Of a stretch of 32,000 bases of DNA, positions 408 to 24,503 are shown in pieces. This DNA comes from an uncultured Nitrososphaerota archaeon (GTDB lineage Archaea > Korarchaeota > Korarchaeia > Korarchaeales > Korarchaeaceae). The DNA lies in contig CAYZRF010000021.1 in assembly GCA_964480775.1 (NCBI GenBank), positions 456 to 32,455 of the forward strand, in the 5' to 3' direction. How positions within the stretch are numbered: position 1 is the stretch's first letter; each line of letters begins with the position of its first letter. The notes beneath the pieces were generated by a model. It saw only the letters and a list, made by a program, of their open reading frames with translations. It did not search any database and was not told where the DNA came from. The translations under genes were made by a program, and so were the position numbers.

Positions 408-791
408 TTAATCCATTACGGACAAACCTTTAACCCCTAACTCATCCTTTACTTTTCTCTTAAGAACTCTTTCAATTCTTTCCACCCCAACCTCATTCGC
501 ATCTATTAGTTCTAAGAAGAGGCATGCTAACTTTTCTGCTGCCTCTTCAGCTATTGGATTAGTGATTCTTATCTCGCAAATCGCGGACTTCATTAACTCA
601 GATAGCTTCTTTTTCGACTTCTCTCTTGAGGGCCTAAAAAATGGAAGGAGCATTTTCAACTTGATTTTAATAGAGCACACAGTGAAACATTGGATTGTAG
701 AGTAAAGGTAACCAGTCTCTTTTCGAAAATTATTACGAAAACCACCTAAGAAATATCTCATTTCATTGATTAACCAATTGAGTTGAACCAA
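408..791 (-). CDS. Small hypothetical protein upstream of moaC; the true start is probably internal (ATG at 653 or 593)
   Basis: ORF track entry. The N-terminal third of the long version overlaps the divergent promoter region and the start of the 783 ORF. The C-terminal part (MKSAICEIRITNPIAEEAAEKLACLFLELIDANEVGVERIERVLKRKVKDELGVKG) looks helical and protein-like. I recognise no family. Confidence 0.35.
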   Translation of the reverse strand: MVQLNWLINEMRYFLGGFRNNFRKETGYLYSTIQCFTVCSIKIKLKMLLPFFRPSREKSKKKLSELMKSAICEIRITNPIAEEAAEKLACLFLELIDANEVGVERIERVLKRKVKDELGVKGLSVMD

Positions 792-1160
792 ACCATATCC
801 TACGCAATAATCGGGACATTGGGCTTAGTTAGCTTAGTTGTATCCTTGCACGGCATCCAGCCATTTATCTCTGATATTGAAAGAAGAGTCGAAACTGGTT
901 GTGTATACTCAGTTCTCAGTGCAATAAGCAACGTAGTCAATTCGGTTGTTGGTGGAGGGTCCGCTAGCGGAATAATATTTACTCCATTCCAAGTTAACCT
1001 TTCAGTTGTTGACAGAATCCTTTTTGCCAGTTGTGGCGATTACAGGGCAGATCTTGAATTTCCTTTCGAAATATCTCCATTAAATGCCTCAATAAGGGGG
1101 TTGGTCAGAATAAAGGCAACATGGTCTGAAAAGGGAGTTTCACTGGTGATTAAGGGATGA
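783..1160 (+). CDS. Hypothetical N-terminally anchored protein, first gene of the six-gene overlapping operon in locus 1
   Basis: TTG start with no internal Met. The N-terminal hydrophobic segment is ISYAIIGTLGLVSLVVSL. N-x-S/T sequons NLS and NAS are present. Its stop overlaps the next start (ATGA at 1157-1160). Confidence 0.5.
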   Translation: MNQTISYAIIGTLGLVSLVVSLHGIQPFISDIERRVETGCVYSVLSAISNVVNSVVGGGSASGIIFTPFQVNLSVVDRILFASCGDYRADLEFPFEISPLNASIRGLVRIKATWSEKGVSLVIKG

Positions 1161-1510
1161 ATGTAGAGATTGATGAAGCTTTAAGAACCTTAGTTTTTGT
1201 AGCATTACTCCTTGCTTCAGGGGCAATCTCCAATAGATTAGCATACTTGAGAGTTAAGAACTTTGGATACAGACTAGCTTCTACCCTTACGGCCCTAAGC
1301 GAAAGATCAGTAAATCACAAAGTGGGTATAGCGCTAGAACTACCAGAGGGTAATTATTCCTTGATTTTCTTCGACAATGGTTCAGCTCTTTTCTCAATGA
1401 ACGGGTACGAAATAGTTCTGAACGGCATTTCAACGGACTTAAGGGGGGAGATCCGAGGCGGGAAAGAATTACAGATTACAAGCAGAGGGGAGCTAATCCA
1501 AGATGGATGA
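1157..1510 (+). CDS. Hypothetical N-terminally anchored protein (candidate minor pilin or TadE-like)
   Basis: The N-terminus MNVEIDEALRTLVFVALLLASG has acidic residues followed by a hydrophobic helix. It shares an ATGA overlap with the upstream gene. Sequons NYS and NGS are present. Confidence 0.55.
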   Translation: MNVEIDEALRTLVFVALLLASGAISNRLAYLRVKNFGYRLASTLTALSERSVNHKVGIALELPEGNYSLIFFDNGSALFSMNGYEIVLNGISTDLRGEIRGGKELQITSRGELIQDG

Positions 1511-1604
1511 AGAAATTGCTGATGCAGTTTGGTTCATAATCGTGATAGCAGCCCTAATACTAGCTATTTTGGCTAGCAACCCACCGCCCTCGCCAATAGG
1601 GTGA
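1503..1604 (+). CDS. Unlisted 33-aa single-pass membrane micro-ORF (MDEEIADAVWFIIVIAALILAILASNPPPSPIG)
   Basis: My own translation; it falls below the ORF-track size cut-off. The ATG at 1503 overlaps the stop of the previous gene, and its TGA at 1602-1604 overlaps the GTG/ATG start of the next. A GAGGGGAG SD lies about 10 nt upstream. It has the same acidic-then-hydrophobic N-terminal pattern as its neighbours. Confidence 0.35.
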   Translation: MDEEIADAVWFIIVIAALILAILASNPPPSPIG

Positions 1605-1882
1605 TGAAGCTGAGGACAATTGCCTTTTTGATTGCCCTCTTGCTTTTATCTCTTCTAGTTATTGATCTTTCAATAAAGAGCATAGTTCCTTCTTGGGCAG
1701 TTAAGGCGAGAGAAGATATTGCTATTAGAACAGTCGAACTCTTTTGGAAGAAGGGTGTTCGACTCGTTTGGGAAGGAGGCTACAGAGAGAACCTCGATCC
1801 CTATGGATTAAGCGTTAAAATCAAAATTCCAGTGCCAAGCTCGCCAAATCAGATATGTGTTGAGATTTCATATAGGAGATGA
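1601..1882 (+). CDS. Hypothetical N-terminally anchored small protein
   Basis: The N-terminus is MMKLRTIAFLIALLLLSLLVIDL. It overlaps both neighbouring genes, which indicates translational coupling. Confidence 0.55.
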   Translation: MMKLRTIAFLIALLLLSLLVIDLSIKSIVPSWAVKAREDIAIRTVELFWKKGVRLVWEGGYRENLDPYGLSVKIKIPVPSSPNQICVEISYRR

Positions 1883-2876
1883 GAGCTTGAGAGAGGTTTT
1901 AGCTATCATAACGATTTTGATCTTGATACTTCCAACATTTATCGTCCCGGATACTAATATCTTGGATAGCAGAATAATTGATGCCGCTTTTGCGGAAAGT
2001 TCTGCATGGATGGAGTCCGAAATAGCCCTACCAAGATATCTCTCATTCATTAGATGTCTGATAGATGAGTGGCTAGCCAATAACTATGGAAAGGATGTAG
2101 ATCAAGTAAGACTTCCAAAGATCATAAATACAGAGGATTGGAAGACATATGCCGAGAACGAAGCCAGGAGTAGGGGAATCATACTCTTTTGCAATGTAAC
2201 GCCCGTAATATTGAGTAGGTCTTATGCAGCTAATGAACTACAAAACAAGGTATTTGCTGGAGGATGTAAGCCAGGGGCTATAGGTGTGCAAAGTTCTTTA
2301 TCCATCTTTGTAGTTTCGAAGAGGGGTTTTGCAGAAGCAGTCGCAAAGAGAAATTACTCTATTTCAGTTTGTCACCCCTGCCTCTATTTTCTAATAAAGG
2401 AAGCTCACAAAAAAATAGAAAAAGAGTTAGAAAACTTGATACCAGACGAAACAGTAGTTGTTGGTGTGAGAAATGACTACATATCAGCAGTATTTCTGCT
2501 TAAATCCAAACTTTTAGATTTAGATAAGAAAATAGACGATCTTCTCACTTCATTAAAGAGAGAGTTCTCCTCAAAAGGAATAGAAATAGAATTCGACGTT
2601 AAGAGAGAAATTTCTATATCAAAAAGCGGAAATTCCGTGAGATTAACTGTATCATACAAGTTTTACATAGAAGTCTGGGATAAAGAGGTTATTTATTGGG
2701 TTAGAGGCCTTCGAAAAGGCTGGTATTTGAAAAATGATCTCAAATTGAAAGCCAAAATGTTGTGCAGGGTTCAAGAGGCGTTCAAAAGGATACCTACCAA
2801 AAATAGAGAGAAAGGACCTGAAAAAAGAGAGAAATCAAGGGAGAGGACAATACCTTGGCTAATACCGCCCAGATGA
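1857..2876 (+). CDS. Hypothetical 339-aa N-terminally anchored protein with a Lys/Arg-rich C-terminus; the likely real start is the TTG at 1887
   Basis: An AGGAG SD at 1874-1878 lies 8 nt before the in-frame TTG at 1887, giving M-REVLAIITILILILPTFIVPD. The C-terminus is KNREKGPEKREKSRER. I recognise no family. Confidence 0.6.
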   Translation: MLRFHIGDESLREVLAIITILILILPTFIVPDTNILDSRIIDAAFAESSAWMESEIALPRYLSFIRCLIDEWLANNYGKDVDQVRLPKIINTEDWKTYAENEARSRGIILFCNVTPVILSRSYAANELQNKVFAGGCKPGAIGVQSSLSIFVVSKRGFAEAVAKRNYSISVCHPCLYFLIKEAHKKIEKELENLIPDETVVVGVRNDYISAVFLLKSKLLDLDKKIDDLLTSLKREFSSKGIEIEFDVKREISISKSGNSVRLTVSYKFYIEVWDKEVIYWVRGLRKGWYLKNDLKLKAKMLCRVQEAFKRIPTKNREKGPEKREKSRERTIPWLIPPR

Positions 2877-3190
2877 GGATCATCCTTCTATTTAATGGCT
2901 TTAAAATATCAACCTATGATTGGTTCTTAGGATCAGAGACTATATTCAATATTTTAAGGAGAATTCTAAAAAGCTTGCTTCTCGAAGTAGATAAAGGACT
3001 TCAATTCCTTAACAGAGTATTTACAGCTTTACTTCCAATTATATTCTTCATCTGGGTCCTGCTTTGGATCATGAACTTGGAGGAATTAAAAGGCCTTCAA
3101 AAATACATCAAGTGGTGGGTTCTATTCTGTTTTGTAATGATAAGCATATCTCAAGGGCTTTCTTTCCTAATAAATGCGAAAATCGACTGA
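2873..3190 (+). CDS. Hypothetical small membrane protein, last gene of the plus-strand operon (the track starts it at the TTG at 2855)
   Basis: The ATG at 2873 forms an ATGA overlap with the stop of the previous gene (2874-2876). Two hydrophobic segments are present (LLPIIFFIWVLLWI and WWVLFCFVMISISQGL). The 3' end overlaps the convergent peptidase ORF by about 80 nt, so one of the two ends may be over-extended. Confidence 0.45.
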   Translation: MRIILLFNGFKISTYDWFLGSETIFNILRRILKSLLLEVDKGLQFLNRVFTALLPIIFFIWVLLWIMNLEELKGLQKYIKWWVLFCFVMISISQGLSFLINAKID

Positions 3191-3581
3191 GCTTTAGGTT
3201 TTTTATCAACTTTGGAAAGAGAACAATTGTAAAAGAAAACAAAAAATAGTAGGAATGGAAATACCCCCTTCCTCTACTCAAACCAATGATGCAAGCAATA
3301 AACAAGATTTTTCCAAGGTCAAAGGAGGAAATAAGAGGGGAAATAGCAATAATGAACTTACAATCTCCGCCTCCAAAGCCAACGCCGTATAATGACAAAG
3401 CAAAAGGAATAGCAGCAAATATTCTAATGAAGACAGAAAAATGTGAATTTCTTAATAAAGAAAAGATGGAATTTAGAGAAAATAGGAATATATTCAATCT
3501 ATTAGGTATCTTGCCTGTCTTGACATCTATCAGAGAACTCAACAATGCTTCCAACATGGCTATAGCCATCATGAGCATCAT
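3108..3581 (-). CDS. Short prepilin peptidase, A24 aspartic protease family, TadV/CpaA-like (no methyltransferase domain)
   Basis: Both catalytic Asp motifs are present in a polytopic 157-aa protein: LIDVKTGKIPNRL and GVGFGGGDCKFII (GxGD type). Confidence 0.8.
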   Translation of the reverse strand: MMLMMAIAMLEALLSSLIDVKTGKIPNRLNIFLFSLNSIFSLLRNSHFSVFIRIFAAIPFALSLYGVGFGGGDCKFIIAISPLISSFDLGKILFIACIIGLSRGRGYFHSYYFLFSFTIVLFPKLIKNLKLSRFSHLLGKKALEICLSLQNRIEPTT

Positions 3582-3582
3582 A

Positions 3583-4158
3583 TCACCCGAATAAATTGCT
3601 GAGTAAGAAAGTTGTCATCAGAAAAGGTATTGAATAGTACATTAGCCACTTTAGGCCCCTTTCCACTTCTTCCGCAATAAATACTGTAAAAGCAGCTCCG
3701 ATTAATCCAAAAGACACGAAATTGCTGTGAGGCTTTCCAAGAAGCATGTACCAAAGGAGTTCAGATATCTTCGAAAAGGCAGCTGACATGACTCCCAACA
3801 TCATGATCAAGAACCTTGCTAAATTCCTTCTATTTTTCAAGAGAGCTGCTCTCTCGGCCTCCAGCTCTTCTACAACTCTCACAATGGATGCAGTGTCCCT
3901 AAGCACTCTACCGATAAATTCTGGCTCTGCTCCAGAGGTCAATATTTCAGCTAACCAAGGACCATAATCTCCGAGAACGGTTTGGAGATTCACCATAATT
4001 TCTTCAATTGTTTTGTCGTCGGCAATAGCTTTCATAACGAGATTCTTGATTTCAGGGTCAAAGAGAGCAACTTGCCTCAGTGCAACGACTGGGTGTCGAT
4101 TAAGTTCCAGTGAATCGGCTAGTGCCTCTATTATCACCGTTTTCGAAGTCTTTTCCAT
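3583..4158 (-). CDS. Half-size T2SSF-domain platform protein (TadC/EpdK-like)
   Basis: 191 aa. A soluble helical N-terminal part is followed by hydrophobic helices (FLIMMLGVMSAAF, FGLIGAAFTVFIA, YYSIPFLMTTFLL). It sits directly downstream of a second half-size paralogue and the secretion ATPase. Starts and stops overlap. Confidence 0.6.
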   Translation of the reverse strand: MEKTSKTVIIEALADSLELNRHPVVALRQVALFDPEIKNLVMKAIADDKTIEEIMVNLQTVLGDYGPWLAEILTSGAEPEFIGRVLRDTASIVRVVEELEAERAALLKNRRNLARFLIMMLGVMSAAFSKISELLWYMLLGKPHSNFVSFGLIGAAFTVFIAEEVERGLKWLMYYSIPFLMTTFLLSNLFG

Positions 4159-4634
4159 AACTTAAACCTCCTAAATGAATATCTGAAGATTGAAACCACG
4201 AATAGACAAATAGAGGTTGGACCGATAAGAGAGGAAGGTATTGTACCGAGAGCAGAAGCGCTAGCCAATAGCATCATTGTTAAGAAAGCCATAGATAGTC
4301 GGATGGCCATTTTATGGTCAAGTTCCTTATTTTCAAGCTCTATTTCCACTCTCATGAAGTTCTTTAGGGTATTAACGATGTCTTGAGAGTTTGCCCCTTG
4401 AAGAAGGGATCTAATTGCCACAGCTAAAGGGCGATAACTCAATTGTTCACAAAATGCGTTTAATTTGCTCTGAAGAGTGTATCCTTCAACAGAGGAAGTA
4501 AGAAACATAGTTCTCATTTCTTTAGCGTAAGGTTCAAGTTTGGACCTAGCTACAAGTTCAACGGCCTTAATCGGACTCCAAGTGAGTCCTAGAGAAAACA
4601 GCTGAATGAACCTCATAACTTGCTTTCGATCCAT
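4134..4634 (-). CDS. Half-size T2SSF-domain platform protein (TadB/EpdJ-like)
   Basis: 166 aa with the same architecture as the neighbouring 191-aa protein. It overlaps the ATPase gene by 22 nt. Confidence 0.6.
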   Translation of the reverse strand: MDRKQVMRFIQLFSLGLTWSPIKAVELVARSKLEPYAKEMRTMFLTSSVEGYTLQSKLNAFCEQLSYRPLAVAIRSLLQGANSQDIVNTLKNFMRVEIELENKELDHKMAIRLSMAFLTMMLLASASALGTIPSSLIGPTSICLFVVSIFRYSFRRFKLWKRLRKR

Positions 4635-6046
4635 GAAGTAGCTCCCTTTATCCTCTTGATAACTTCTTCATTGGTCTTCAAGTTCAGCGAAGATCTGATC
4701 ATTGAGAGAAACCTCTCTGAGGGTTTTGGTTTTACCTCCTCCCAACCACTATCCTCATACCTGTAGAGTTTTTCGGCAACCCTAAATTCCATAAACAACG
4801 TTAAACACCCCATTAGAGCATCTTCCATTCCCCATCTAAACCATTTCCTCTCCAACGAGACAGGATCCTTAGCATGCGTTGTTGCGATCACCCTGAATCC
4901 GCTTTCTTTTGCTAGAGCAAAGGCTTTAGCGTGTTCTTCTGTAAGAATTTCCCCTAAAAAGACTAAATCAGGATTTCTATGCAAAAAGGTGGTCACCACA
5001 CTCTCCCTTTCACCAGGAAAGACGTAGGGATGATGTTTAAGGCCATAACGAGAAAAATCTTCAATTTCCCTTACTTCCTCGATGCTTATGATCCTCCATT
5101 CCCTAGCGGAATATGCTAGAAGAGAGTTAGCTAGTGTGGTTTTGCCTACGCCCGTTCTTCCAACAATCATGATTGGCTGTCTTTCGTACATGGCTTGTAC
5201 TAAATAGGCTGCAAGGCTTTCACTTATCGTCCCTAACGCTATTAAGCGCGACATTGGAAGTCTCGGCAAAGCAGAAAGATTTCTTGCGTCAAACGAAGGT
5301 TTTGATATTGGAGGAATGTCAACTCCAAGTCTAATCTTAGAGTCCTTAAAGGTAAACTCAATCTTTACGGTGGGTTGGTTGAGGTTAAGGGACCCATAGG
5401 GATGCAACTCCACTATCGTTCTAATCTTTTCAAACTCCCTCCTATCTAGGATTAAATTGCTAATTTCAACCCTACCTGCCTCGATGTGATCTATGTATAC
5501 CGGAGAACCCTCAAGGCCGTAGATCTCAGTTATATCATTGCCAGTTGCCAAGATAAGAATGGGCCAAGCCTTTGTAGATCTTACAGCTGCTTCTAAGATA
5601 ATGTCATCTCTTAAAATCTTATTAGAGCCGAGTATCTTTTTTATCTGGTTCTTTCGAAAATTTATAACGTCCCAAAGATCGATTTCCAATGAATCTTCTG
5701 GATAAACTCCTTCCATTAACCTAGAGAGACCTATTGCAAAGATCACACTTCCTGAACCGCAAATCCAGCTCTTGGGTATGAAATAAGTCCTTTTACCATT
5801 CATGCCAAGCATAGCACATCCGAGATCCTCTATTATTTCATCAAAATGTATCTTTGGGGTTTTTAGAGGAGGATAGGGTACTTCCTTTACAAACGCAATG
5901 TGCTTCTCGCTTCCAAGTGCTGCCAACAATCTTGCCTTGTCGTAGGTCTGATAAGGACTGAGAAAAAGATCTAAGGAAAACTCCTCTACCCACTTTATAG
6001 CTGCATTTACGAATCTATGATATGAGTTCTCCTCGTTAAGGCCCAA
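4613..6046 (-). CDS. Type IV filament secretion ATPase, CpaF/TadA/VirB11-like
   Basis: Motifs seen: Walker A IMIVGRTGVGKTTLANSLL, Asp box IISIEEVREIE, Walker B PDLVFLGEILTEEHA and His box FRVIATTHA. The N-terminal domain is about 290 aa. The TTG start is preceded by GGGGTGA. Confidence 0.85.
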   Translation of the reverse strand: MGLNEENSYHRFVNAAIKWVEEFSLDLFLSPYQTYDKARLLAALGSEKHIAFVKEVPYPPLKTPKIHFDEIIEDLGCAMLGMNGKRTYFIPKSWICGSGSVIFAIGLSRLMEGVYPEDSLEIDLWDVINFRKNQIKKILGSNKILRDDIILEAAVRSTKAWPILILATGNDITEIYGLEGSPVYIDHIEAGRVEISNLILDRREFEKIRTIVELHPYGSLNLNQPTVKIEFTFKDSKIRLGVDIPPISKPSFDARNLSALPRLPMSRLIALGTISESLAAYLVQAMYERQPIMIVGRTGVGKTTLANSLLAYSAREWRIISIEEVREIEDFSRYGLKHHPYVFPGERESVVTTFLHRNPDLVFLGEILTEEHAKAFALAKESGFRVIATTHAKDPVSLERKWFRWGMEDALMGCLTLFMEFRVAEKLYRYEDSGWEEVKPKPSERFLSMIRSSLNLKTNEEVIKRIKGATSWIESKL

Positions 6047-6055
6047 CTACTTGGT

Positions 6056-6337
6056 TCACCCCGTGGTGAGGTTGCCTCTGGCTAAATTCTCACTTTCTGA
6101 GCCCCAGAGGCTGCTAAGATGTTCGCTTAACCAATCAATGAAATCCGAAAATTTCTCTTCAGTAAGATCCGGTAGATTCCACAAGAACTCCAAAGCGTTT
6201 GCTACAGGGTTTACAACAAGAGCGAAGAAAGCAGCTATGGTGGCAGCAATCAAAAGAGCAGTTTCTGTTGTCTGAGTTAAACCAGATTCATCCTCTAAAA
6301 AACCCTTGATGAATCTTTTAATTTTCTTAAACAGCAT
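6056..6337 (-). CDS. Flp-type prepilin-like protein (93 aa from the internal ATG at 6337; the track extends it to 6415)
   Basis: A GGAGGTGA SD at 6342-6349 lies 4 nt upstream of the ATG at 6337. The sequence MLFKKIKRFIKGFLEDESG|LTQTTETALLIAATIAAFFALVV resembles the bacterial Flp leader and cleavage motif (F-L-x-D-E-x-G then T/E-containing hydrophobic helix). The gene sits immediately upstream of the CpaF-like ATPase. Confidence 0.7.
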   Translation of the reverse strand: MLFKKIKRFIKGFLEDESGLTQTTETALLIAATIAAFFALVVNPVANALEFLWNLPDLTEEKFSDFIDWLSEHLSSLWGSESENLARGNLTTG

Positions 6338-6609
6338 TTTCACCTCCCAGAGGGGGAAAGCTTGGAAAGGGTATTTAAGACGTCTCTTAGCAGAATACAT
6401 TGTTCTTGCAATCATTATTGGGCGTTTATGCTACTAAACACGTTGTTTTACTGATATCACTCATCAGAAAAACATAGGATATATTCAAGAGTAACAGGGT
6501 AGATATCCAAAGTTTTGCACTTAATTTATCATTTATTATCCCATCAAAAGGTTAATCTAGGAGGGGATTAGGACTAAAAGGATTCCTTTCTTCAAACTTT
6601 CTCATCAAC

Positions 6610-7770
6610 TCATCCAAAGCCTTCCAATACCAGAAGCATCCTATGGGCATCGGTTCTGGTAGCTTCAGAAGGGTTAATTGCTGCCCATATCAGTCTCTTT
6701 ATCCCTTCTCCTTGAGGATCGCTAATTGAGCGAAGTTCATGCGGCCTTACTTCTAGAGATTTAGAAATAAGCCTAATAAACCAAGGAAATAGGGCCAAGA
6801 TACAATTCTTAATGTCACCTGAATTTAAGAGATGTCTCGCTGCTCTAATTTCTTTAGATCCCTCTCTTCTTAACTTACTAACTAGTAAACAAAAAGAAAG
6901 ATCTCTCAACGCAATTCCCAAAAAACCTATGGAGGAAATCAAAAAGAGAAAGGTGTTGAAGCACCCAGTTAAGACGGTGAATAGAGCAGATAAGATCAGC
7001 CTCTTTTTTGCTAATTGCTTCGATGTCTTAATTAGATCAAAAACATCTAAATTTTCTACTTCTTTGCTTGGAATAGTTAGACGGCTTGATAACTTAAAAA
7101 CCAAAAAAGGGCTGAGAAATAGGGCAAAAAAAGATAAATTTGTCTTCAAACGATAGATTAATGCAAAAACAGTAGAAGCTATGTTTAAACTAAATGCTAT
7201 GTGGGAGAGTCTTATTTCTCCCTGGTAGCTCATATAACTAAGTAGAGGAATGCCAATAATTGATGAAAGTAGAAAATAGAAATTTGGAAAAGAAAAACTA
7301 ACGACATTGAAGTCCCCCAAGAAAACTGCTATAGAAAATGTAACAGAACTAACTAGGGCCGAAATTGAAAGGTATTTTAGGAACGTAGGGAAGTTCTTTC
7401 TCTTCCCTATCTTCCGAGCTAGCAATAGGCTAACTGAATCACTGAAACCATACAACGAAGTCCATCCATACAGGAGCGCATGAATTGTTGATATAGAATT
7501 ATCCAAATTCACAAAGGCTGGCAGATATAGAAACATCAGTACACCAGATATTCCAAGGCTTGTAAGACTTTGGAGATAAGAACATGCTCCTAGCATGGCC
7601 CCTAGAACACAAACGAGAAATAAACCTCCAAGATCGTCATAGGACACTTTTATCTGCCAAGCTAGACTATCCCCTATGCTTACTTCTCTTTTAAGTGCGC
7701 AAAAGTAGAGAGAGATTAACAGCACACCGTAAAGAATAGTTAAGAGATACAGGGCCTTATTTGGGTTCAA
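6610..7770 (-). CDS. 386-aa polytopic membrane protein of unknown family with a soluble C-terminal tail
   Basis: About 9-10 hydrophobic segments by eye. The C-terminal region of about 90 aa is hydrophilic (LRREGSKEIRAARHLLNSGD...EATRTDAHRMLLVLEGFG). Its TTG start lies inside the last codons of the upstream ParA-like gene (14-nt overlap). Confidence 0.6.
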   Translation of the reverse strand: MNPNKALYLLTILYGVLLISLYFCALKREVSIGDSLAWQIKVSYDDLGGLFLVCVLGAMLGACSYLQSLTSLGISGVLMFLYLPAFVNLDNSISTIHALLYGWTSLYGFSDSVSLLLARKIGKRKNFPTFLKYLSISALVSSVTFSIAVFLGDFNVVSFSFPNFYFLLSSIIGIPLLSYMSYQGEIRLSHIAFSLNIASTVFALIYRLKTNLSFFALFLSPFLVFKLSSRLTIPSKEVENLDVFDLIKTSKQLAKKRLILSALFTVLTGCFNTFLFLISSIGFLGIALRDLSFCLLVSKLRREGSKEIRAARHLLNSGDIKNCILALFPWFIRLISKSLEVRPHELRSISDPQGEGIKRLIWAAINPSEATRTDAHRMLLVLEGFG

Positions 7771-9118
7771 TGAAATCCCTTCCCATGCCTTTGAGTTTTA
7801 GAAATGATAGTGCAAGATCCAAGAACATTCTATACTCTTGCGATAAGGATGAAATATCTAATTCCTGCCTAGCTGTCAAAGAGCTAGCTGTTTTCTCATC
7901 AAGACCCGCCAAAAGAAGTGCTTCCTTTAGATTTTTCCTCGTTATGAATGCTTCCATTCCATCCGAGAACCTAAGTCTAACCTTTCTTCTAAAGAAAGGG
8001 AATAAATCAATGTGAAAACTAGAAGATTCTATCTCTCTGTAAATATCTTTAGGAACTGGAACCTCTTTGGCCTGAACAATTCCCTTTATAGCTTCTAGTC
8101 GTGGATTGGTTTCTTCCAACAAATCACTGTACTGATTTGATAAATAACCCTGTCCCGACGCGCCTAAGTCAATAGTTGGAACTTGATTATCAAAATTTCT
8201 TACAAAATGAAAGTCCTTACGAAATATCTTGATTAAATGCTTGGCCACACTCCTTTCTTTATAATCAATATCACCGTTGAAACCTTCAATTAGGGAGTGA
8301 TAGAAAGTTGCCTCATGCATTCTTGAAAGTGAAATTGAACAACTTTGAATGCATCGAGAAAACGACTCATCAAAGGGCAATAAATAAGCAGGGACATTCC
8401 AATAAGTTTTTACTAGCTCTTGCAGTTCAGTTGATTGTAAATTATGCCCATATTTGTTTATTATGACAAAAGGAGTCGAGAGATTGTTAATATCTAAAGA
8501 AAAAAGGTGTCTTTTTGTTTGAAGAATGGAATTTTTGTCTGGAAGCAAGACTGGGATTAGCAAACTGACCCATCTTGAGAGAGCCTTAAGCAGAACCCTT
8601 GCTGAGTAGTCCGATGATGGAAAATCTACTATGAGGAACTCAACACCAATCTCGCGAATATATTCCTCTAAAGATCTTAGTCTAAGCAAAAGAAGATCAA
8701 TTGGTTCGTACAACAGCGTCGAAACATCATCGCTTCCAGCAGGAATTACTTTAAGCTTAATGAGATCAGAAAGTTTGCGCCTGATACTCGAGTCTTCGAG
8801 TGAAATCAACGGATCATATACTACTTCCTCAGGGAATTTATTCCCAAGTAAAACATCGTGAAGACCATGAAATCCCTCATTTCCAAGGAATAAGTACGTT
8901 AGATCGGCGTTATGTAGATTAGCATCCATAACCGCAGCCATCTTACCCTCTTCTTCCATTAGATATGACATTATGAAGGATAGAGCCATGCTAACCGAGG
9001 TCTTACCAACCCCTTCGGTGCCAAAGAAACCTACTTTTAGCATTAACCCATCAATATGATGAACGCCTGTCTCAAAGACCCTATTTAAGGAGATCTTGCC
9101 AGCGCAGTTTTCGGACAA
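7757..9118 (-). CDS. ParA/MinD-superfamily ATPase, TadZ/CpaE-like, with a long C-terminal extension
   Basis: A Walker A-like motif VGFFGTEGVGKTSVSMAL is followed by AAVMDANLHNADLTYLFLG, which matches the ParA/MinD layout. The signature lysine of the KGG deviant Walker A is absent (TEG). The maximal ORF overlaps the moaA stop by 34 nt. An alternative start is the ATG at 9043 (MLKVGFFG). Confidence 0.65.
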   Translation of the reverse strand: MSENCAGKISLNRVFETGVHHIDGLMLKVGFFGTEGVGKTSVSMALSFIMSYLMEEEGKMAAVMDANLHNADLTYLFLGNEGFHGLHDVLLGNKFPEEVVYDPLISLEDSSIRRKLSDLIKLKVIPAGSDDVSTLLYEPIDLLLLRLRSLEEYIREIGVEFLIVDFPSSDYSARVLLKALSRWVSLLIPVLLPDKNSILQTKRHLFSLDINNLSTPFVIINKYGHNLQSTELQELVKTYWNVPAYLLPFDESFSRCIQSCSISLSRMHEATFYHSLIEGFNGDIDYKERSVAKHLIKIFRKDFHFVRNFDNQVPTIDLGASGQGYLSNQYSDLLEETNPRLEAIKGIVQAKEVPVPKDIYREIESSSFHIDLFPFFRRKVRLRFSDGMEAFITRKNLKEALLLAGLDEKTASSLTARQELDISSLSQEYRMFLDLALSFLKLKGMGRDFIEPK

Positions 9119-10047
9119 TGGGCTTCTGTGGACTTAAAGTAAGGTTCTCTTTGTGCAACAGCTCTTAATAAGGAGTTGACAACTCCGCCCCAGCTTCCTG
9201 ATCTAAGTTCCTTTAGAAACTTAACAGGAGGTTTACTGGAAAGAAGGCATGTTTTAAAAGCGCCAAAATGAGTGACTCTAATTTTAGTGCAGTGATAGCA
9301 GAAATCAGGATTGCTCATAGACCTTACAAGCTCAACCTTAACATCTCCTAGGTCATATACTGGCCTATCGTGCATATCTTGACGTATTTTAATCGAAATT
9401 GCCTTTTCCTTTATTCTTTCCTCCAGCTCATGGAAATCTACGCCGTATTTCCTAAGAAGAGGGGAGTTTGGATCTCTATCTTGTAGTTCAATTAGCTGGA
9501 CGTCAGCACCTATGTTAGCCGCAAACTCGATCAAAGAATCGAGTTCTCCTTCATTTAACCCCCTTAACATGACGCGGTTAATTTTAAGACGTTTTATACC
9601 GAACGATATAGATTTTTCTATCCCCCTCAACACCTTTTCGAGGCTATCTACACCAGTAATTCTTTGATAAACCTCCTTTTTCAAGGATGGGAGGTTTACG
9701 TTGACCCTGTCGAGACCAGCTTCAATTAAGCCTTGAATTCTTTCCTCCAGAAGGGTTCCGTTTGTAGTGAGTCCTATGTCCTTTATGCCCTCAACCCTCC
9801 TGATCTGAGCTACTATCTCACTCAGATCTTCTCTAAGGAGGGGCTCACCCCCAGTCAGCTTTATTGTTCTGACGCCAAAGTCAGCAAGGATGGCAACGAG
9901 TCTACCAATGTCCTCAGGAGTCATTATTTCATTTTCTTCGTTATGATAGCCCTCAGCATGGCAAAAGAAGCATCTTAGATTGCATTCATGGTTAACTGAG
10001 ATCCTCAAGTTGAGCAGAGGCCTGTCATAGGGGTCTCTGAGTATCAT
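9085..10047 (-). CDS. moaA: GTP 3',8-cyclase MoaA (radical SAM)
   Basis: The radical SAM cluster motif CNLRCFFCH is present, followed by KLTGGEPLLR and GLTTNG, and a C-terminal Cys cluster CYHCTKIRVTHFGAFKTC. Confidence 0.92.
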   Translation of the reverse strand: MILRDPYDRPLLNLRISVNHECNLRCFFCHAEGYHNEENEIMTPEDIGRLVAILADFGVRTIKLTGGEPLLREDLSEIVAQIRRVEGIKDIGLTTNGTLLEERIQGLIEAGLDRVNVNLPSLKKEVYQRITGVDSLEKVLRGIEKSISFGIKRLKINRVMLRGLNEGELDSLIEFAANIGADVQLIELQDRDPNSPLLRKYGVDFHELEERIKEKAISIKIRQDMHDRPVYDLGDVKVELVRSMSNPDFCYHCTKIRVTHFGAFKTCLLSSKPPVKFLKELRSGSWGGVVNSLLRAVAQREPYFKSTEAHCPKTALARSP

Positions 10048-10645
10048 GACGAATTGCCAACTATGTCATATCGAATTTAATAATAACTCTTACCTTTTAC
10101 GAAGGATGGAAAGCCCAGTCCATGAACATAGAGCCAAATCCCCTCATAGATTGAGATATGCCGTTTATACGGTTAGCTCCTCTAGATATAAAGCGATAAA
10201 AGAAGGAAGAGACTTTACTGATCCTACTGGAGACTTAGCAGTGAAGTTGATAGAATCGGCTGGAAACTCAGTTGTCATAAGGAAAGTACTTCCTGACGAG
10301 AAATCATCAATAAGACGCGAGTTAGAGAGTGCTCTAAAAGAAGCAGACGTCATCATTCTGTGTGGTGGAACTGGATTACATCCAGAAGACGTAACTGTCG
10401 AGGCCGCAAGCGGAATATTTGAGAAAGAAATACGGGGCTTTGGCGAGCTATTTAGGCATCTTAGCTTTCAAAGCATCGGATCTGCTGCTATGTTAAGCAG
10501 AGCAACAGCGGGAATTTGTAGGGGAAAGGCGATTTTCTGTCTTCCAGGATCAACGAAGGGAGTAGAGCTAGCCCTCAAGAAACTTATCCTGCCAGAGGCT
10601 GGGCACATAATTTGGGTTGCTAGAGGGTATAAGAACGGTTCTTGA
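10046..10645 (+). CDS. moaB: Molybdenum cofactor biosynthesis protein MoaB/MogA family; the probable real start is the ATG at 10106 (MESPV...)
   Basis: Motifs seen: YTVSSSRY, ILCGGTGLHPEDVTVEA, GFGELFR, MLSRATAG and CLPGSTKG. An AT-rich TATA-like element TTTAATAATAA at about 10074-10084 lies about 25 nt upstream of 10106, which suggests a leaderless or short-leader transcript. Confidence 0.85.
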   Translation: MTNCQLCHIEFNNNSYLLRRMESPVHEHRAKSPHRLRYAVYTVSSSRYKAIKEGRDFTDPTGDLAVKLIESAGNSVVIRKVLPDEKSSIRRELESALKEADVIILCGGTGLHPEDVTVEAASGIFEKEIRGFGELFRHLSFQSIGSAAMLSRATAGICRGKAIFCLPGSTKGVELALKKLILPEAGHIIWVARGYKNGS

Positions 10646-10648
10646 ATT

Positions 10649-12625
10649 CTAACCTAGAAAAAAACCAATATCATCGCCAACAACATATCCAGGCATGTTA
10701 GAGAGCTTATTTTTGAAGTCATCAGATTTGAGAACCTGAAGAAACAGCTTAACAGAGCGTTTATCCAATCTGTCCATCCTTACAAGGAAATCGTACCTCT
10801 CAGTAGTTAGAGGAATGAAATCCAACCCTTTAATCCTTGCTACATACTCTATTCCAAGGCCTACGTCTGCTTCTCCTCTTGCCACGGCCTCAGCAACACC
10901 AGAGTGAGTTTTCCTCTCGAATCCATACCCGTTTATACGCTCTTTTAGCGTCTCAACTGAAATACCCTTCTCTGCAGCCAACCTAGCGATGAAGTAATCC
11001 AAAAGTATCCTTGTTCCAGAGCCTCTATTCCTGTTCACAAACCTTACGTCGTTCCTCAACAAGTCCTCTATCCTGCTAATTCCTTTGGGATTTCCTTTTG
11101 CAACAATTAATCCTTGAACGCGTTCGTACCCTCTAACGAGCTTTGCTACGCCCTTTAAAGAGTAATCCTCCAAGAATCCAACGTTGTACTCACCTGTCCT
11201 AGGATTCAGCGCATGAACCCCTGAGATGTCTGCCTCTCCAGCCCTAATAGCTTCAAAACCTCCCAGAGATCCAACGTTCACGCGGACTATCCTTAGATTT
11301 TCCTTTTTCTTGAGCATTGAGAGGAGAAGTTCAGCTCCTGGGCAGTGACTTCCTATGAATCCAAGATCTGCAGGTCTAACCCCTTCCTGAAAAGGAATGA
11401 CGAGGACCTTTTCTCCTCTTTCTACGTATTCCACATTCTCTGATATTTCTACATATCCGTCTGCCCTGCTGAGAGTTGATATAGCCTCAGATCCTGTAGG
11501 TATTGGAAAAGCCAATATCTCTCCCTTCGCATCTGACAGCAAAGCAACGGGGAGGAAGTTCCTCCTCCCAAGAGTGGAGCGCACTCTCCTTCCCATCTTT
11601 GCTTTTATCGGAACTTGCTCCAAGGTCTTAATTCCAGCCATTTTCCTCACTAAAGGAGATACAAACTTTCTATAGGCAATGAGCGCGCTTGTTGGATATC
11701 CTGGCAACCCAATTACGAACTTATTTCCGATAACACCGAGAATAAAGGGCTTTCCTGGTTTCATAGCCACGCCATGAACGAGTACCCCAGGTTTTCCCGC
11801 TTTGTCTATCGCTTTATACACTACATCACCAGCCCCAGCACTTGTACTTCCAGATACGAGAACTAGATCAGCCCACTTGAGAGCTCCCTTTATTTCACCT
11901 AAGATAGACTCTAGGTCGTCTGGTAATATCCCTAGAACCTTTGGCTCTCCTCCATCCTGCCAAACAGATGTTGAAATAGTGTATGAGTTTATGTCATAGA
12001 TCTTACCGTAATCCAATGGATTTCCAGGAGCAACGAGCTCGTCTCCTGTGCTAAGAATGGCCACAACAGGTTTCTTTACCACTTTTACTTTCGTTCTCCC
12101 TATGGCTGCTAGCAATCCTATCTCCCTGGGACCTAGAATGCTGCCGGAGTGCAATAGGGTTTCTCCTGCAGCCACATCAGTACCCGTGCCCTGAATATTG
12201 GCTCCTGGTGCAACAGATTTGAAAATAAGGAGGAGATCTCCCTTAACTTCTGTTCTCTCCACTAGGACAACCGCATTTGCTCCTGGAGGAATAACGGCTC
12301 CTGTAGCTATCTCAACCGCTTCTCCCTCAGAGACCACACCTTTAAAGGGCTTTCCAGCCTCTGCAATGCCTATAATCCTTAAAGTTACGGGGTTCTCCTC
12401 GTCCGCGCCGAAGGTGTCCTCTGCCTTCAGGGCATATCCATCGTACATGGCCCTATCGAATGAGGGGACATCCACCTCTGAAGGAATGTCCTCTGCAAGC
12501 ACCCTACCAACGGCATCCTTGATAGGTACATCCTCTGATTTAGGGACATAGGAGTAATGCCTTTCTATTAAGCGAGAAACCTCTTCAACGGAAACTAGCT
12601 TTCTAAACTCTTTTCTCTCTCCCAT
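10649..12625 (-). CDS. moeA: Molybdopterin molybdenum/tungsten transferase MoeA fused to a C-terminal periplasmic-binding-protein-like (molybdate/tungstate-binding type) domain
   Basis: The N-terminal roughly 410 aa are collinear with the neighbouring MoeA ([42 protein letters not shown]). The extra roughly 240 aa ([10 protein letters not shown]...VNVGSLGG...NRNRGSGTR) look like a PBP-fold domain. Confidence 0.88.
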
Positions 12626-12634
12626 ATAGATCCC

Positions 12635-13921
12635 TCAGAGCGTGCTTAATTCTGAAACATTCGTAGATATGTAGCGCTTGAATGGGAGAACCTCTACGAT
12701 CTCTCCCTCCTTATACCCCTCTACATCCTCAGGTACGATGAGAAATGCGTCCGCTTTTACCAATGAACTTGCAATTCCAGCACCGGAGATCCTAACAGGG
12801 ATTGCCAACCACTCATTTCCACTTCTCTTAAGCTTGACTCTAGCGAAATGCAAAATTCCTGGTCTTGAAGGTACCTTGCCCACAAGCCTAGCCCTAAGGG
12901 TGTTTATCATCCTCTCACCCTTAATCCCAAGAAATCTCTCAATTAAGGGGACAAGAAATAGCAATGCAGCTACGGCAGCAGATACAGGATAGCCTGGAAG
13001 ACCTATAAATGGCTTCCCATTTGAAAGAACTGAAAGCAGGGTAGGTTTCCCAGGCATAACCCCTACTCCATGAACGATTATCTTTGCTCCAAGTTTTTCA
13101 AGAGCATCTGGAACGAAATCGGATGTTCCAACGCTGGTTCCTCCGCTCGTTAGGATGACATCTGCCTCCTTGCACTCGCTTATTCTCCTTGCGAGTTCAT
13201 CTGCATCATCGTCTACAATTCCCTTGTAAGAAAAGAGACCCCCGTGTTCCTCTACAATTCCTTTAACGAGCCATCTGTTGGAATTCACAATTTTTCCTGG
13301 GGCTTCCTTATCTCCTACCTCAATTAACTCATGTCCCGTGCTTATCATGCCAATAACAGGCTTCTTACGAACCAAAACCTCTTTTTTGTTGATAGAAGCT
13401 AGCAAACCTAGTTCAAAGGCCCCTATTATGGTTCCCTTTGGGAGCAGGACTTCACCTGCCCTGATGTCCTCACCCCTCCTTGAAACGTTCCGGAACGGCG
13501 GAACTTGTTCATAGATTCTGACCATTCCACCACTTTCCTCAGAATTCTCCACCTCTACAACCGCATCGGCCCCTTTTGGCAAGACTGCCCCAGTGTGGAT
13601 CCTTACAGCCTCTCCAGCCCTGACTTCCAAGCTTATCTCCCTGCCAGCTTGAATTTCTCCAATGACTCTGAGTGCAATTGGAGAATGTTGGGATGCTCCG
13701 TATGTATCCTCAGCCCTGACGGCGTATCCGTCCATAGCTGCCCTGTCAAACGGCGGAACATCTTCTTGAGCTCTTATATCTTCAGCTAAAACCCTGTCTA
13801 GGGCATAATCTAGCCCTACGTACTCAGCCTCGGTGGGCTTTAGGTCAAGAGAACTCATGAAAGTTTCCAGAGCTTCTCTTACCTTCATGATCGTTCTGAA
13901 ACCCTTCCATTTGTGGGACAT
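12635..13921 (-). CDS. moeA: Molybdopterin molybdenumtransferase MoeA (stand-alone paralogue)
   Basis: Motifs seen: [38 protein letters not shown] and LPGYPVSA. Confidence 0.9.
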
Positions 13922-13974
13922 CTTGGAACATTTGCGAGTGCACTTATTACGTTTGATGTATTTATCATACTGAG

Positions 13975-14730
13975 ATGAAAGGAGGAACAGGTGGTGTTCT
14001 TACAACCAGAGATCTTATTAGATACGATAGACAACTTCTGATCATTGGTAAGGCTGGCCAGGAGAAACTAAAGAGAGCATCCGTTGCAATAGTGGGAATA
14101 GGTGGGTTGGGTAGCCCGGCTGCTTTCTACCTTGCTGGGGCTGGGGTGGGAAGGCTGATATTGATAGATCCTGAGAGACCAGAGCTGAGCAATTTGAACA
14201 GACAAATAATACATTGGGAAGGCGATTTTTCTCTTCCCAAAGCCCAGTCTGCCGCAGAGAAATTGAGAAAATTCAATTCTGACATCGTTATAGAGCCTAA
14301 ATCAGTCAAAATTACAAAAGAAAACGTTTCAGAAGTCTTAAGTGGGGTAGATGTGGTTGTTGATGGACTTGACAACTTCGAGACAAGGTACCTCCTCAAT
14401 GAGTACTGTTTGGAGCACGGAAAGCCATTTGTACACGCAGCAGTTAGGGGGTTGGTTGGTCAGGCAACGACAATCGTACCTCAAAGATCTCCATGCTTAA
14501 GGTGCATTTTTCCAGAGCCTCCAAAAGCTGAGAAAAAATTCCCGATTTTGGGGGCAACAGCAGGAACTCTCGGCTGTATTGAAGCGTTAGAAACGATTAA
14601 ACTGATAACTGGCTTTGGGAGACCTCTGACAGGGAGACTTCTCATAATAGACCTTGAGGACATGACTTTTAACCTGATAGGGGTGAAGAGGCGGCCAGAC
14701 TGTCCCGTGTGTGGAGGCCTCCATAGTTAG
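13975..14730 (+). CDS. moeB: ThiF/MoeB/HesA-family E1-like adenylyltransferase
   Basis: Motifs seen: RYDRQLLI, the nucleotide-binding loop VGIGGLGSPAAFYLAGAGVG, DNFETRYLLN and two CxxC pairs (CLRC, CPVC). No rhodanese domain is present. The symbol is given by context with the Moco genes; a ThiF or UbaA-type role is equally possible. Confidence 0.85.
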   Translation: MKGGTGGVLTTRDLIRYDRQLLIIGKAGQEKLKRASVAIVGIGGLGSPAAFYLAGAGVGRLILIDPERPELSNLNRQIIHWEGDFSLPKAQSAAEKLRKFNSDIVIEPKSVKITKENVSEVLSGVDVVVDGLDNFETRYLLNEYCLEHGKPFVHAAVRGLVGQATTIVPQRSPCLRCIFPEPPKAEKKFPILGATAGTLGCIEALETIKLITGFGRPLTGRLLIIDLEDMTFNLIGVKRRPDCPVCGGLHS

Positions 14731-16756: not shown

Positions 16757-17038
16757 ATGTTAAGGAGCAAGGTTTTAGAGGCAATAAAAGAGTTTAACGA
16801 ATTTAGAAGTCCAGAGGCAACAGCAAACTCGTTTTAATTAAAGATAATAGGATTATCGTTAGGATGAATGGAACCTATTGTAGAACATGTGGCCTCTATG
16901 ATTACTTTGAGGATCTTTCATGGAAAATCAAGGGATTACTTGAAAGCTAACGTAAAGATTCTGTCGACGAGAAGAATAGATCATTTCTCCTATGAAATCA
17001 TATATGAGGTGGAATCTCTTAGTAAAAGATCTAAATGA
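16757..17038 (+). pseudogene. Small CxxC protein gene interrupted by two compensating frameshifts (or two homopolymer sequencing errors)
   Basis: Three segments read as one coherent protein of about 93 aa. Frame A 16757-16825 gives MLRSKVLEAIKEFNEFRSPEATA. The -1 frame 16825-16947 gives KLVLIKDNRIIVRMNGTYCRTCGLYDYFEDLSWKIKGLLES. Frame A resumes at 16946-17038 with ANVKILSTRRIDHFSYEIIYEVESLSKRSK. Both switches fall at AAA runs (16825-16827 and 16943-16945). An alternative is an intact 56-aa ORF at 16868-17038. Confidence 0.4.
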
Positions 17039-20044: not shown

Positions 20045-20285
20045 CTACTCCCATAATGTGATAGACCGGGTTGATTTAGATTATTGAACAAATAAAATGC
20101 TGTGGATCAACATTAAAATCTACCTATGTTTACTAGAAATTACTTATATTTTACAAAATATGATAAAGAAATTCTAGATAAAAGCCAGAAACAGTTGATT
20201 CTAGTAGAAAACAATTCATATAGAATTTTTTGGTTAAATTAACTTATTTTTAAGTTTTCCAAATAGATGGTGATCTTTGATAAGT

Positions 20286-20319
20286 AAAAAATGAAACCTA
20301 AGTAAGAAAAGATAAAAAA
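20286..20319 (-). terminator. Oligo-T tracts downstream of the pilin gene (candidate archaeal intrinsic terminator)
   Basis: On the minus strand, one T6 run (20319-20314) lies 17 nt after the stop at 20336-20338. A second T6 run lies at 20291-20286. Confidence 0.4.
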
Positions 20320-20335
20320 GAGATGAAAGGAGGGC

Positions 20336-20785: not shown

Positions 20786-20835
20786 ATCCCACACCTTCTA
20801 TTCTTTTGTTGACCATGTAGTATACTAATGGAGAG

Positions 20836-20844
20836 TATAAAAAT
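20836..20844 (-). promoter_or_regulatory. TATA box candidate for pilin paralogue 1 (minus-strand ATTTTTATA, followed by CTCTC)
   Basis: This AT-rich octamer resembles the archaeal TATA consensus. It lies about 50-60 nt upstream of the ATG at 20785. The core is almost identical to the one at 25001-25008. Confidence 0.45.
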
Positions 20845-20850
20845 CCTACC

Positions 20851-20890
20851 ATGAAAATCCATGAAAAACCATGAAATACTGTGAAATCTT
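20851..20890. repeat. Four exactly phased 10-bp tandem repeats (atgaaaatcc / atgaaaaacc / atgaaatact / gtgaaatctt)
   Basis: Read directly. The units start at 20851, 20861, 20871 and 20881, immediately upstream of the TATA candidate. The core is TGAAA(T) on the plus strand, which is (A)TTTCA on the coding strand. Confidence 0.8.
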
Positions 20891-20981
20891 TTTCTAAACA
20901 CATCAAACTTTAAAATTAAAGCATTAGAGCGTTTTTCCTTTTATCCAAGAATTTGGAATTTTTTCAAATTAGAAACTGTTT

Positions 20982-21422: not shown

Positions 21423-21426
21423 GATA

Positions 21427-21918: not shown

Positions 21919-21921
21919 GAT

Positions 21922-24500: not shown

Positions 24501-24503
24501 ACT

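Follow-up and report, generated by a model that had tools for sequence, protein, structure and literature searches.

Archaeal type IV filament loci of clade 1 (Epd-like) combine two tadC genes and pilins of ~70 amino acids (aa) with a FleN/MinD ATPase and a dedicated peptidase; further membrane proteins and five or more small signal-bearing proteins complete the set (PMC4858521). The bacterial Tad system derives from Epd-like archaeal systems, and its TadZ component aligns with archaeal MinD-like arCOGs (Denise et al., 2019, PMC6668835). Subclade 4D of the Thermoproteales pairs an ATPase with a short, diverged TadC and adds a TFIIB homologue; neither pilins nor secreted proteins have been described for it (PMC4858521). 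Its sister, on a very long branch, is Kcr_1307, the sole Korarchaeum cryptofilum ATPase, which is paired with a 280-aa TadC of four transmembrane (TM) segments and has a 133-aa signal-bearing neighbour, Kcr_1304 (Makarova et al., 2016, PMC4858521). Subclade 4G, also from the Thermoproteales, comprises complex loci with the MinD-like arCOG05608, a diverged ATPase and TadC and many small predicted pilins as well as membrane proteins (PMC4858521; 10.64898/2026.04.22.720090). A MacSyFinder2 survey of 2026 leaves the Korarchaeota unmentioned and reports only 'simple', core-only type IV filament systems for Heimdallarchaea (10.64898/2026.04.22.720090). In this study, we describe a gene locus at positions 783-9118 of a 32,000-nucleotide (nt) stretch of DNA (hereafter the window) from an uncultured korarchaeal genome (assembly GCA_964480775.1, contig CAYZRF010000021.1, positions 456 to 32,455 of the forward strand).

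The locus probably encodes a complete and specialized type IV filament (pilus) assembly machine that belongs to a deep, fast-evolving archaeal lineage. An earlier interpretation made from the DNA letters and their translations, termed here the sequence-only reading, had proposed a Tad/Flp-like filament locus of bacterial style in an archaeal context. Its assignment to the type IV filaments of an archaeal (korarchaeal) genome is borne out by an ATPase and a prepilin peptidase that both score above the curated Pfam cut-offs and by a conserved gene set. The bacterial style is not, as the ATPase, the pilin and the MinD-like protein are all archaeal in affinity. The design is Tad/Epd-like, the affinities are archaeal and not bacterial, and the locus differs from known systems in the lineage of its ATPase and platform.

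Gene order and core components

Seven minus-strand open reading frames (ORFs) are present in 783-9118 with the coordinates and sizes that the sequence-only reading had assigned to them, and hydropathy analysis agrees with the topologies it described. The plus-strand operon (783-3190), which it had called divergent, is convergent: it lies tail-to-tail with the minus-strand operon, which runs from 9118 down to 3108, and the last genes of the two overlap by 83 nt. Its count of six plus-strand genes is reached when a conserved 33-aa ORF at 1503-1604 is included. Start/stop overlaps of 4-25 nt between genes indicate translational coupling. The full gene set recurs in the same order in the related Korarchaeota contigs L001 and L002, with 50-89% amino-acid identity for every gene, and the core genes recur in the same order in the more distant Korarchaeota contig L003 (24-57% identity). 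Gene order is also retained in L085 and L086; gene set and order are entire in L001, L003 and L086, and mostly so in the shorter contigs L002 and L085. Since the ORFs are conserved together with their order across L001/L002, L003 and L085/L086, they are not chance occurrences. Named close relatives are entered as Candidatus Korarchaeota or Thermoproteota archaeon, for example RLG42357.1, whose ATPase is 75% identical, and P0299.

The curated Pfam cut-offs are 24.9 bits for T2SSE, 26.5 for Peptidase_A24, 25.2 for T2SSF and 25.4 for CbiA. Only the ATPase (T2SSE, 46.9 bits) and the peptidase (Peptidase_A24, 42.7 bits) of the locus exceed them. Pfam and NCBIfam returned no significant match for the pilin, for either platform half or for any accessory protein; seven genes (Mem386, acc125, acc117, acc33, acc93, acc339 and acc111) have no family match, close to the eight or so that had been estimated. 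No gene for the secretin RcpA or for TadD was found among the window proteins scanned, in agreement with the sequence-only reading and as expected for an archaeon without an outer membrane.

The ATPase (477 aa; 4613..6046, minus strand) is a secretion/assembly ATPase of the T2SSE superfamily (PilB/VirB11/FlaI). Its four nucleotide-binding motifs, Walker A (GRTGVGKTT), Asp box (SIEEVREIED), Walker B (PDLVFLGEI) and His box (ATTHA), are intact in the window and invariant in an alignment of 32 relatives. Profile score, predicted structure and a distance tree all place it in the archaeal FlaI/GspE grouping, as a deep and very divergent clade of its own. The family profile matched FlaI (E = 6.6e-30) and afGspE (2.2e-29) before CpaF (4.6e-20) and VirB11 (4e-15), at 106-108 bits for FlaI/afGspE versus 75 bits for CpaF, some 30 bits apart. 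A Foldseek search with the AlphaFold2 (AF2) model, which has a predicted local distance difference test score (pLDDT) of 89.9, returned afGspE (2OAP; 4.9e-20), FlaI (2e-18), PilB and CpaF (1e-14) in that order. In a neighbour-joining tree of 210 core columns with 100 bootstraps, built from a set without Epd-like ATPases, the focal family is monophyletic in 100/100 replicates; it joins FlaI, afGspE and the second ATPase of the window in 98/100 and CpaF in 0/100. Of the 'CpaF/TadA-like ATPase' proposed earlier, the four motifs thus stand and the CpaF affinity falls. A position inside the ordinary archaeal adhesion-pilus clades had been named beforehand as counting against the sequence-only reading; the ATPase lies outside the ordinary archaeal clade as sampled here. 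With the NCBIfam FlaI model it scores 57 bits, compared with 270 bits for the second ATPase.

An exhaustive profile search retrieved 270 cluster representatives (50% identity) related to this ATPase at E<=1e-30. Named members of the family come from Korarchaeota, Bathyarchaeota, Nitrososphaerales, Promethearchaeota/Asgard and Borrarchaeum, and a genome scan adds loci from Heimdallarchaeota and Marsarchaeota. The range of the clade covers the Thermoproteota, with Korarchaeia and Bathyarchaeia among them, as well as Asgard and Marsarchaeota. Some members carry the database name 'Candidatus Korarchaeum sp.' (P0032/P0036), and the ATPases of L013 and L020 have Cys-rich N-termini. About 60 bacterial loci from the genome-collection scan, considered as tad references, proved to be P-type conjugation loci (TraG-TrbB-TrbC-TrbD-TrbE) and were dropped.

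Two small proteins are encoded next to the ATPase. Plat166 (166 aa; 4134..4634, minus strand) has a cytoplasmic helical domain of ~105 aa followed by two TM segments, and Plat191 (191 aa; 3583..4158, minus strand) has a six-helix cytoplasmic domain, also followed by two. Iterative searches with hidden Markov models (HMMs) found the platform homologues always directly downstream of the ATPase, as one 448-aa protein in L020 and as one 303-318-aa protein in L004-L010 and L012. Plat166 matches the N-halves of the 303-318-aa forms (hhalign probability 92%, E = 5.6e-7), the C-halves remaining unmatched, and corresponds to residues 102-241 of the 448-aa protein; Plat191 finds its homologues in the C-halves of fused proteins (20 loci). 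By homology, then, the pair are the N- and C-halves of one protein that is fused in relatives. Direct comparison of Plat166 with Plat191 gave an hhalign probability of 3.6%, no direct sign that the halves are paralogues. A sub-threshold T2SSF signal of 17-21 bits occurs in three of ten relatives, all fused, and in either half: the N-halves of L004 and L006 and the C-half of L007 (E = 2.8e-3). An AF2 model of Plat191, made from an 11-sequence alignment, is mediocre overall (pLDDT 66) with a better N-domain (~80-87), and its Foldseek top three were cytoplasmic domains of EpsF (2VMB) and OutF (5NBG), with probabilities of 0.90-0.93 and target-normalized TM-scores of 0.56-0.64 among 350,542 PDB chains. 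Position, topology and the correspondence of the halves to the fused relatives agree with a platform, and this identity is well supported, although not proven. The split itself, already seen in the sequence-only reading, is real because it is conserved. Its inheritance from a TadB/TadC-like division is doubtful: the order N-half then C-half, together with fused forms interspersed in the family, suggests an independent, local fission of the platform and not an inherited Tad/Epd split.

The prepilin candidate (93 aa; 6056..6337, minus strand) has a 19-aa basic leader that ends in FLEDESG and is followed by LTQTTETALLIAATIAAFFALVV. The 93-aa product is preferred because a strong Shine-Dalgarno sequence (GGAGGTG) stands 4 nt upstream of the second ATG; the predicted mature pilin would have 74 aa, helix-only in size. 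Leader and helix, FL(E/K/A)DE(S/R)G followed by (L/V)TQT(T/V)E(T/Q)ALLIAAT..., are kept in L001 and L003. HMM searches found mini-pilin homologues of 61-97 aa beside the ATPase relatives of L011, of the Heimdallarchaeota loci L015-L019 and of the Marsarchaeota loci L023 and L024. Across three archaeal phyla the family keeps a leader that ends in Gly or Ala, a hydrophobic helix and, at +5/+6, an acidic residue. In the Heimdallarchaeota, where the junction reads KDRRA followed by SPLIEEGILIG, and in the Marsarchaeota the acidic residue is at +5; in the Korarchaeota and L011, a Thermoproteota metagenome-assembled genome, a one-residue insertion places it at +6. An N-x-T sequon at the extreme C-terminus (6056-6100) is also conserved in L001 and L003 (GNLTTG, GNLTQG and NTTTNVT), and would be compatible with N-glycosylation of an exposed pilin tail.

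Pfam assigned no significant family to the pilin. Weak signals were seen in its homologues, two of nine for Pilin_N (E = 0.019) and one of nine for Flp_Fap (E = 0.036), and the top three PDB matches of the pilin profile were archaeal Pilin_N pilins (8FJ5, 9MYG and 8GI2; E = 0.02-0.08) with leader and helix aligned. An archaeal-type mini-pilin is therefore a credible identification of the 93-aa protein, in place of the 'Flp-type prepilin' that had been proposed. The leader FL(E/K)DESG presumably resembles Flp leaders such as that of Caulobacter PilA; a literature string search for the Flp motif gave no match.

The MinD/ParA-superfamily P-loop protein (428 aa; 7757..9043, minus strand) consists of an N-terminal NTPase domain and a C-terminal domain of ~170 aa without a known family. 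A 453-aa ORF reaches 9118, and the protein most likely starts at Met26, as it does in all relatives and in P0121 (100% identical over 428 aa). Its Walker A motif, GTEGVGKTS, has lost the signature Lys of the deviant consensus KGGxGK[ST], as has GTGGVGKTT in L003. Pfam CbiA reaches 19.1 bits, under the cut-off. Against the PDB, the family profile matched archaeal MinD in the P-loop region (1ION, 3.3e-7; 1HYQ, 5.7e-6; 1G3Q, 1.6e-5) and FleN weakly; no TadZ chain appeared at E<=1. The NTPase domain is N-terminal, not placed after a receiver-like domain as in TadZ/CpaE. The earlier label of a TadZ/CpaE-like ATPase is thus replaced by a likeness to archaeal MinD; the protein does share an atypical Walker A with TadZ. 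An Flp match for the 93-aa protein and a grouping of the ParA-like protein with TadZ were two points on which the sequence-only reading had staked itself, and both have turned against it in part, the former protein lacking an Flp match and the latter falling with MinD. Homologues of the ParA-like protein were found in nine database clusters and in L003, which confines this component to a narrow group of Korarchaeota.

The short A24 aspartic prepilin peptidase (157 aa; 3108..3581, minus strand) carries both catalytic motifs, D19-VKTGKIPN and GFGGGD73, as the sequence-only reading had recognized. It has neither a methyltransferase domain nor the archaeal C-terminal domain, and scores weakly with the NCBIfam models EppA (20 bits; cut-off 450) and FlaK (14 bits). 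A PDB sequence search with it gave no match, and its similarity to the second, FlaK-type peptidase of the window is marginal. Homologues occur in L001, L003, L011, L013 and L086.

Accessory proteins and genomic surroundings

Mem386 (386 aa; 6610..7770, minus strand) is a polytopic membrane protein with at least seven hydrophobic segments and no Pfam or NCBIfam match, conserved in place in L001 (50% identity) and L003 (25%). The plus-strand operon opens with acc125 (125 aa; 783..1160) and acc117 (117 aa; 1157..1510), each with a single N-terminal TM segment. The former has no Pfam match and has homologues of ~133 aa downstream of ATPase-platform pairs in L007, L010, L012 and L020; the latter is 63% identical in L001/L002. 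They are followed by the 33-aa micro-protein acc33 (1503..1604), MDEEIADAVWFIIVIAALILAILASNPPPSPIG, with one TM segment, which is present in L001 (where it is called as a gene), L003 and L086. The gene shares 4-8 nt with the neighbour on either side and is easily missed in annotation. Next come acc93 (93 aa; 1601..1882), with a single N-terminal TM segment and homologues in L001 and L003, and the N-terminally anchored acc339 (339 aa; 1857..2876), without a Pfam match, which is the most widely conserved accessory protein (L001, L003, L007, L010 and L020). The recurrence of acc125 (L007, L010, L012 and L020) and acc339 (L007, L010 and L020) beside ATPase-platform pairs marks them as core accessories of the lineage.

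The last plus-strand gene, acc111 (111 aa; 2855..3190), has two C-terminal TM segments and homologues in L001 (50%) and L086 (56%), and it is this gene that overlaps the peptidase gene tail-to-tail at 3108-3190. We considered whether acc111 is an antisense artefact of a longer peptidase, and this is ruled out: the acc111 frame gives two clean TM helices and the antisense extension is Arg/Ser-rich. In L086 (18014-18667) a 217-aa peptidase has been called; its extension reads the acc111 homologue in antisense, is likewise Arg/Ser-rich and is probably a gene-calling overrun. Divergent from the accessory operon, a small cytoplasmic helical protein without a family match (408-791, minus strand) also adjoins it in L001, at 60% identity, and may be a regulator.

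Between Mem386 and the pilin gene, L001, L085 and L086 have two extra genes for secreted Ig-like proteins, one with a CARDB match: a secreted protein of ~460 aa and a CARDB/Ig-like protein of ~420-430 aa with a C-terminal anchor (L001, 6950-9603; L085, 12516-15169; L086, 12499-15167). At the same place the window has a 194-nt spacer only (6416-6609), the ends of which match the L001 flanks, so that the putative adhesin cassette appears as a clean presence/absence polymorphism.

An ordinary archaeal type IV pilus locus lies 8 kb from the focal locus, at 17031-26057. It encodes a 532-aa platform protein (17031-18629; T2SSF 25.9 bits, above the cut-off), a 471-aa ATPase (18629-20044; T2SSE 99 bits), seven pilin-like proteins of 146-346 aa (20336-25034), several with recognizable class III-type N-termini such as RKRRRG followed by VSQVTTAIVLMVLG, and, divergently oriented, a 245-aa A24 peptidase of FlaK type that carries the archaeal C-terminal domain Arc_PepC_II (25320-26057). 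This separate locus has a peptidase of its own, which makes the focal locus a second system, presumably dedicated to its own pilin. Orthologues of the second ATPase are called as proteins of 914 aa (L085 1-428) and 1531 aa (L086 1-541) and carry Intein_splicing and LAGLIDADG domains, which suggests one intein in L085 and two in L086; the window copy is intein-free.

Molybdenum-cofactor genes occupy 9085-14730 and 26070-26885, between and beside the two pilus loci. They encode MoaA, MoaB, ThiF/MoeB, two MoeA proteins, of which one is joined to a periplasmic-binding-like domain, and an additional MoCF_biosynth protein. L001, L085 and L086 share this arrangement, and the archaeal-type moa context, conserved in the lineage, argues for vertical inheritance and not recent transfer. 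No tRNA or Rfam element was found within the window.

The more distant loci have neighbours of other kinds. A TFIIB-repeat protein (38.9 bits) is encoded in L003 (12614-13420, minus strand), where the platform/peptidase genes lie on one side of it and the accessory operon on the other, and a Zn-ribbon protein is encoded in the Heimdallarchaeota locus L019 (8594-9652, plus strand) between pilin and ATPase. In the Marsarchaeota locus L024 (12565-14034, plus strand) a HerA/DUF87-type ATPase (81 bits) directly follows the mini-pilin gene, a possible hint of a DNA-transfer link in that lineage.

Comparison with described systems

Compared by published description with the Epd-like systems of clade 1, such as that of Methanococcus maripaludis, the focal locus has an identical parts list, including the small N-terminally anchored proteins. 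It differs in its ATPase, which is not CpaF-like by profile, fold and tree, the Epd-like ATPases being assigned to arCOG01819 of the CpaF family. Furthermore, its peptidase is a minimal 157-aa form and Epd-like EppA is long-form; its host is korarchaeal, whereas Epd-like systems occur in methanogens, Thermococcales and DPANN; and fusion of the platform in its relatives points to an independent split. The sequence-only reading had regarded the co-occurrence of Tad-like traits in an archaeal genome as the unusual point. These traits are already documented together in archaeal clade 1/Epd-like loci, and the co-occurrence is not in itself unusual because it is a known archaeal pattern (PMC4858521; PMC6668835).

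With the bacterial Tad/Flp systems the locus shares a short helix-only pilin, a short peptidase without a methyltransferase domain, a split platform, a MinD-superfamily partner whose Walker A is atypical and the order partner-ATPase-platform-platform. In contrast to them, it has no Flp_Fap match, no CpaF-clade ATPase, no TadZ match or architecture, no secretin and no TadD, and the acidic residue of its pilin is at +6 here and at +5 there.

A described archaeal counterpart in ATPase and platform appears to be the K. cryptofilum locus Kcr_1303-1309 with subclade 4D. Both combine a long-branch ATPase with a short (~280-318 aa, 4-TM) diverged TadC; Kcr_1304, with 133 aa, has the size of the acc125 homologues in L007, L010 and L020, and a TFIIB-like neighbour is present in some loci of the focal family, as in 4D. 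These sizes and contexts, the 'Candidatus Korarchaeum sp.' names, the TFIIB protein of L003 and the Cys-rich N-termini of L013 and L020 make it likely that the focal family is the lineage of Kcr_1307 and its 4D neighbours. The focal locus nevertheless encodes a pilin and a peptidase, together with a MinD-like ATPase and seven additional membrane proteins, whereas 4D is described without a pilin. Subclade 4G, again judged by description, resembles it in its complex locus, distinct MinD-like ATPase, diverged ATPase and TadC and many small proteins, and is set apart by PilA-family pilins with Cys-rich globular parts and by large Ig-rich adhesins as its hallmark.

Proposed mechanism, alternatives and biological meaning

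We propose that the 93-aa prepilin inserts into the membrane and is cleaved after Gly19 by the minimal A24 peptidase. A hexameric T2SSE ATPase would then drive the platform of two half-size proteins, which may extract the mature helix-only pilins of ~74 aa and stack them to give a thin filament similar to those of Flp or Epd. The MinD-like protein without the signature Lys is most likely an ATP-binding hub for positioning or assembly, as are TadZ, FleN and archaeal MinD. Mem386 and the six small anchored products of the convergent operon may serve as minor pilins or span the envelope. Surface or cell-cell adhesion would be the likeliest role, given the secreted Ig-like genes inside the operon of close relatives.

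Several observations weigh against this reading. Beyond the ATPase and the peptidase, the proteins of the locus stay below every curated family threshold. Neither Plat166 nor Plat191 has a Pfam T2SSF match; the fold matches of Plat191 have E ~1, and the TM part of its model is of low confidence (pLDDT 37-60). The pilin label draws on motif, size, position and matches of E ~0.02, and the acidic residue of the window pilin is at +6, the canonical position being +5. The window lacks the two Ig-like genes of its relatives, which makes the adhesion role weaker for this genome. Lastly, subclade 4D has been proposed perhaps not to make pili (PMC4858521), a proposal that bears on the present locus through the likely kinship that we infer.

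The alternative that survives best, though improbable, is an ordinary archaeal adhesion-pilus locus (Aap-like or typical clade 4) made odd only by fast sequence evolution. Every part is indeed archaeal in affinity, and archaeal type IV filament loci are extremely diverse and fast-evolving (PMC4858521; preprint 10.64898/2026.04.22.720090). However, it is the window's other locus that is ordinary, with its far higher FlaI score (270 versus 57 bits), its 532-aa T2SSF platform and its 146-346-aa pilins. The focal ATPases form a separate clade with 100% support and pair with mini-platforms of 300-450 aa and with 61-97-aa pilins.

A machine that makes no pilus, repurposed in the manner of subclade 4D (ATPase, short TadC and TFIIB) for secretion, DNA transfer or a transcription-linked task, would be a rather long shot. 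The TFIIB-repeat protein inside the L003 locus, the Zn-ribbon protein between pilin and ATPase in L019 and the HerA-like ATPase that adjoins the pilin in L024 speak for it. So do the Cys-rich ATPase N-termini in L013 and L020, as in 4D ATPases (PMC4858521 supplement), and the position of the K. cryptofilum ATPase, probably of the same family, as sister to 4D in the published tree (PMC4858521). On the other side, the locus has a pilin-like gene and a prepilin peptidase of its own and its relatives have secreted Ig-like proteins, all of them features usual in filament or adhesion systems, and the window locus contains no TFIIB gene.

It is very unlikely that the locus represents a Tad/Flp (T4cP) system of bacterial type, or the nearest sister that Tad has among archaea, with homologous leader, peptidase, TadZ-like ATPase and platform split: the order MinD-like ... 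pilin - ATPase - half-platform - half-platform - short peptidase does resemble tadZ-tadA-tadB-tadC, pilin and peptidase are short, an atypical Walker A is reported for TadZ too (PMC6668835) and one of nine pilin homologues matches Flp_Fap weakly (E = 0.036), but the ATPase groups with FlaI, afGspE and the second ATPase and never with CpaF, its profile favours FlaI/afGspE by ~30 bits and Foldseek ranks CpaF after 2OAP, FlaI and PilB, the MinD-like protein has neither a TadZ match nor the receiver-first architecture, the best pilin matches are archaeal Pilin_N pilins, the N-half-then-C-half split with fused close relatives suggests local fission, and the conserved moa synteny stands against recent transfer.

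A dedicated archaeal filament machine of its own lineage is thus the reading that we prefer. A wider proposal is offered tentatively, as a possibility that we would not yet favour: the locus may typify an undescribed archaeal type IV filament subtype of Thermoproteota, Asgard and Marsarchaeota, with an ATPase of the long-branch Kcr_1307/4D group. The 61-97-aa pilins would then have been overlooked and the 4D-type loci would be filament machines; a Tad/Epd-like architecture (mini-platform fission, MinD-like hub and minimal dedicated peptidase) would have arisen independently in the Korarchaeota.

The locus gives no ground for assuming that an archaeon has a bacterial Tad system. Type IV filaments have been charted much less in archaea than in bacteria, and subclade 4D is functionally unexplained. 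If the kinship with Kcr_1307 and 4D is true, the 4D branch would gain a candidate pilin, a dedicated peptidase and a defined set of accessory proteins. Beside Tad/Epd there would be a second, apparently independent design of mini-pilin, split platform and MinD-like hub, which would bear on the origin of this architecture. The triplets of ATPase, platform and mini-pilin in Heimdallarchaeota make the family relevant to the cell-surface biology of Asgard archaea.

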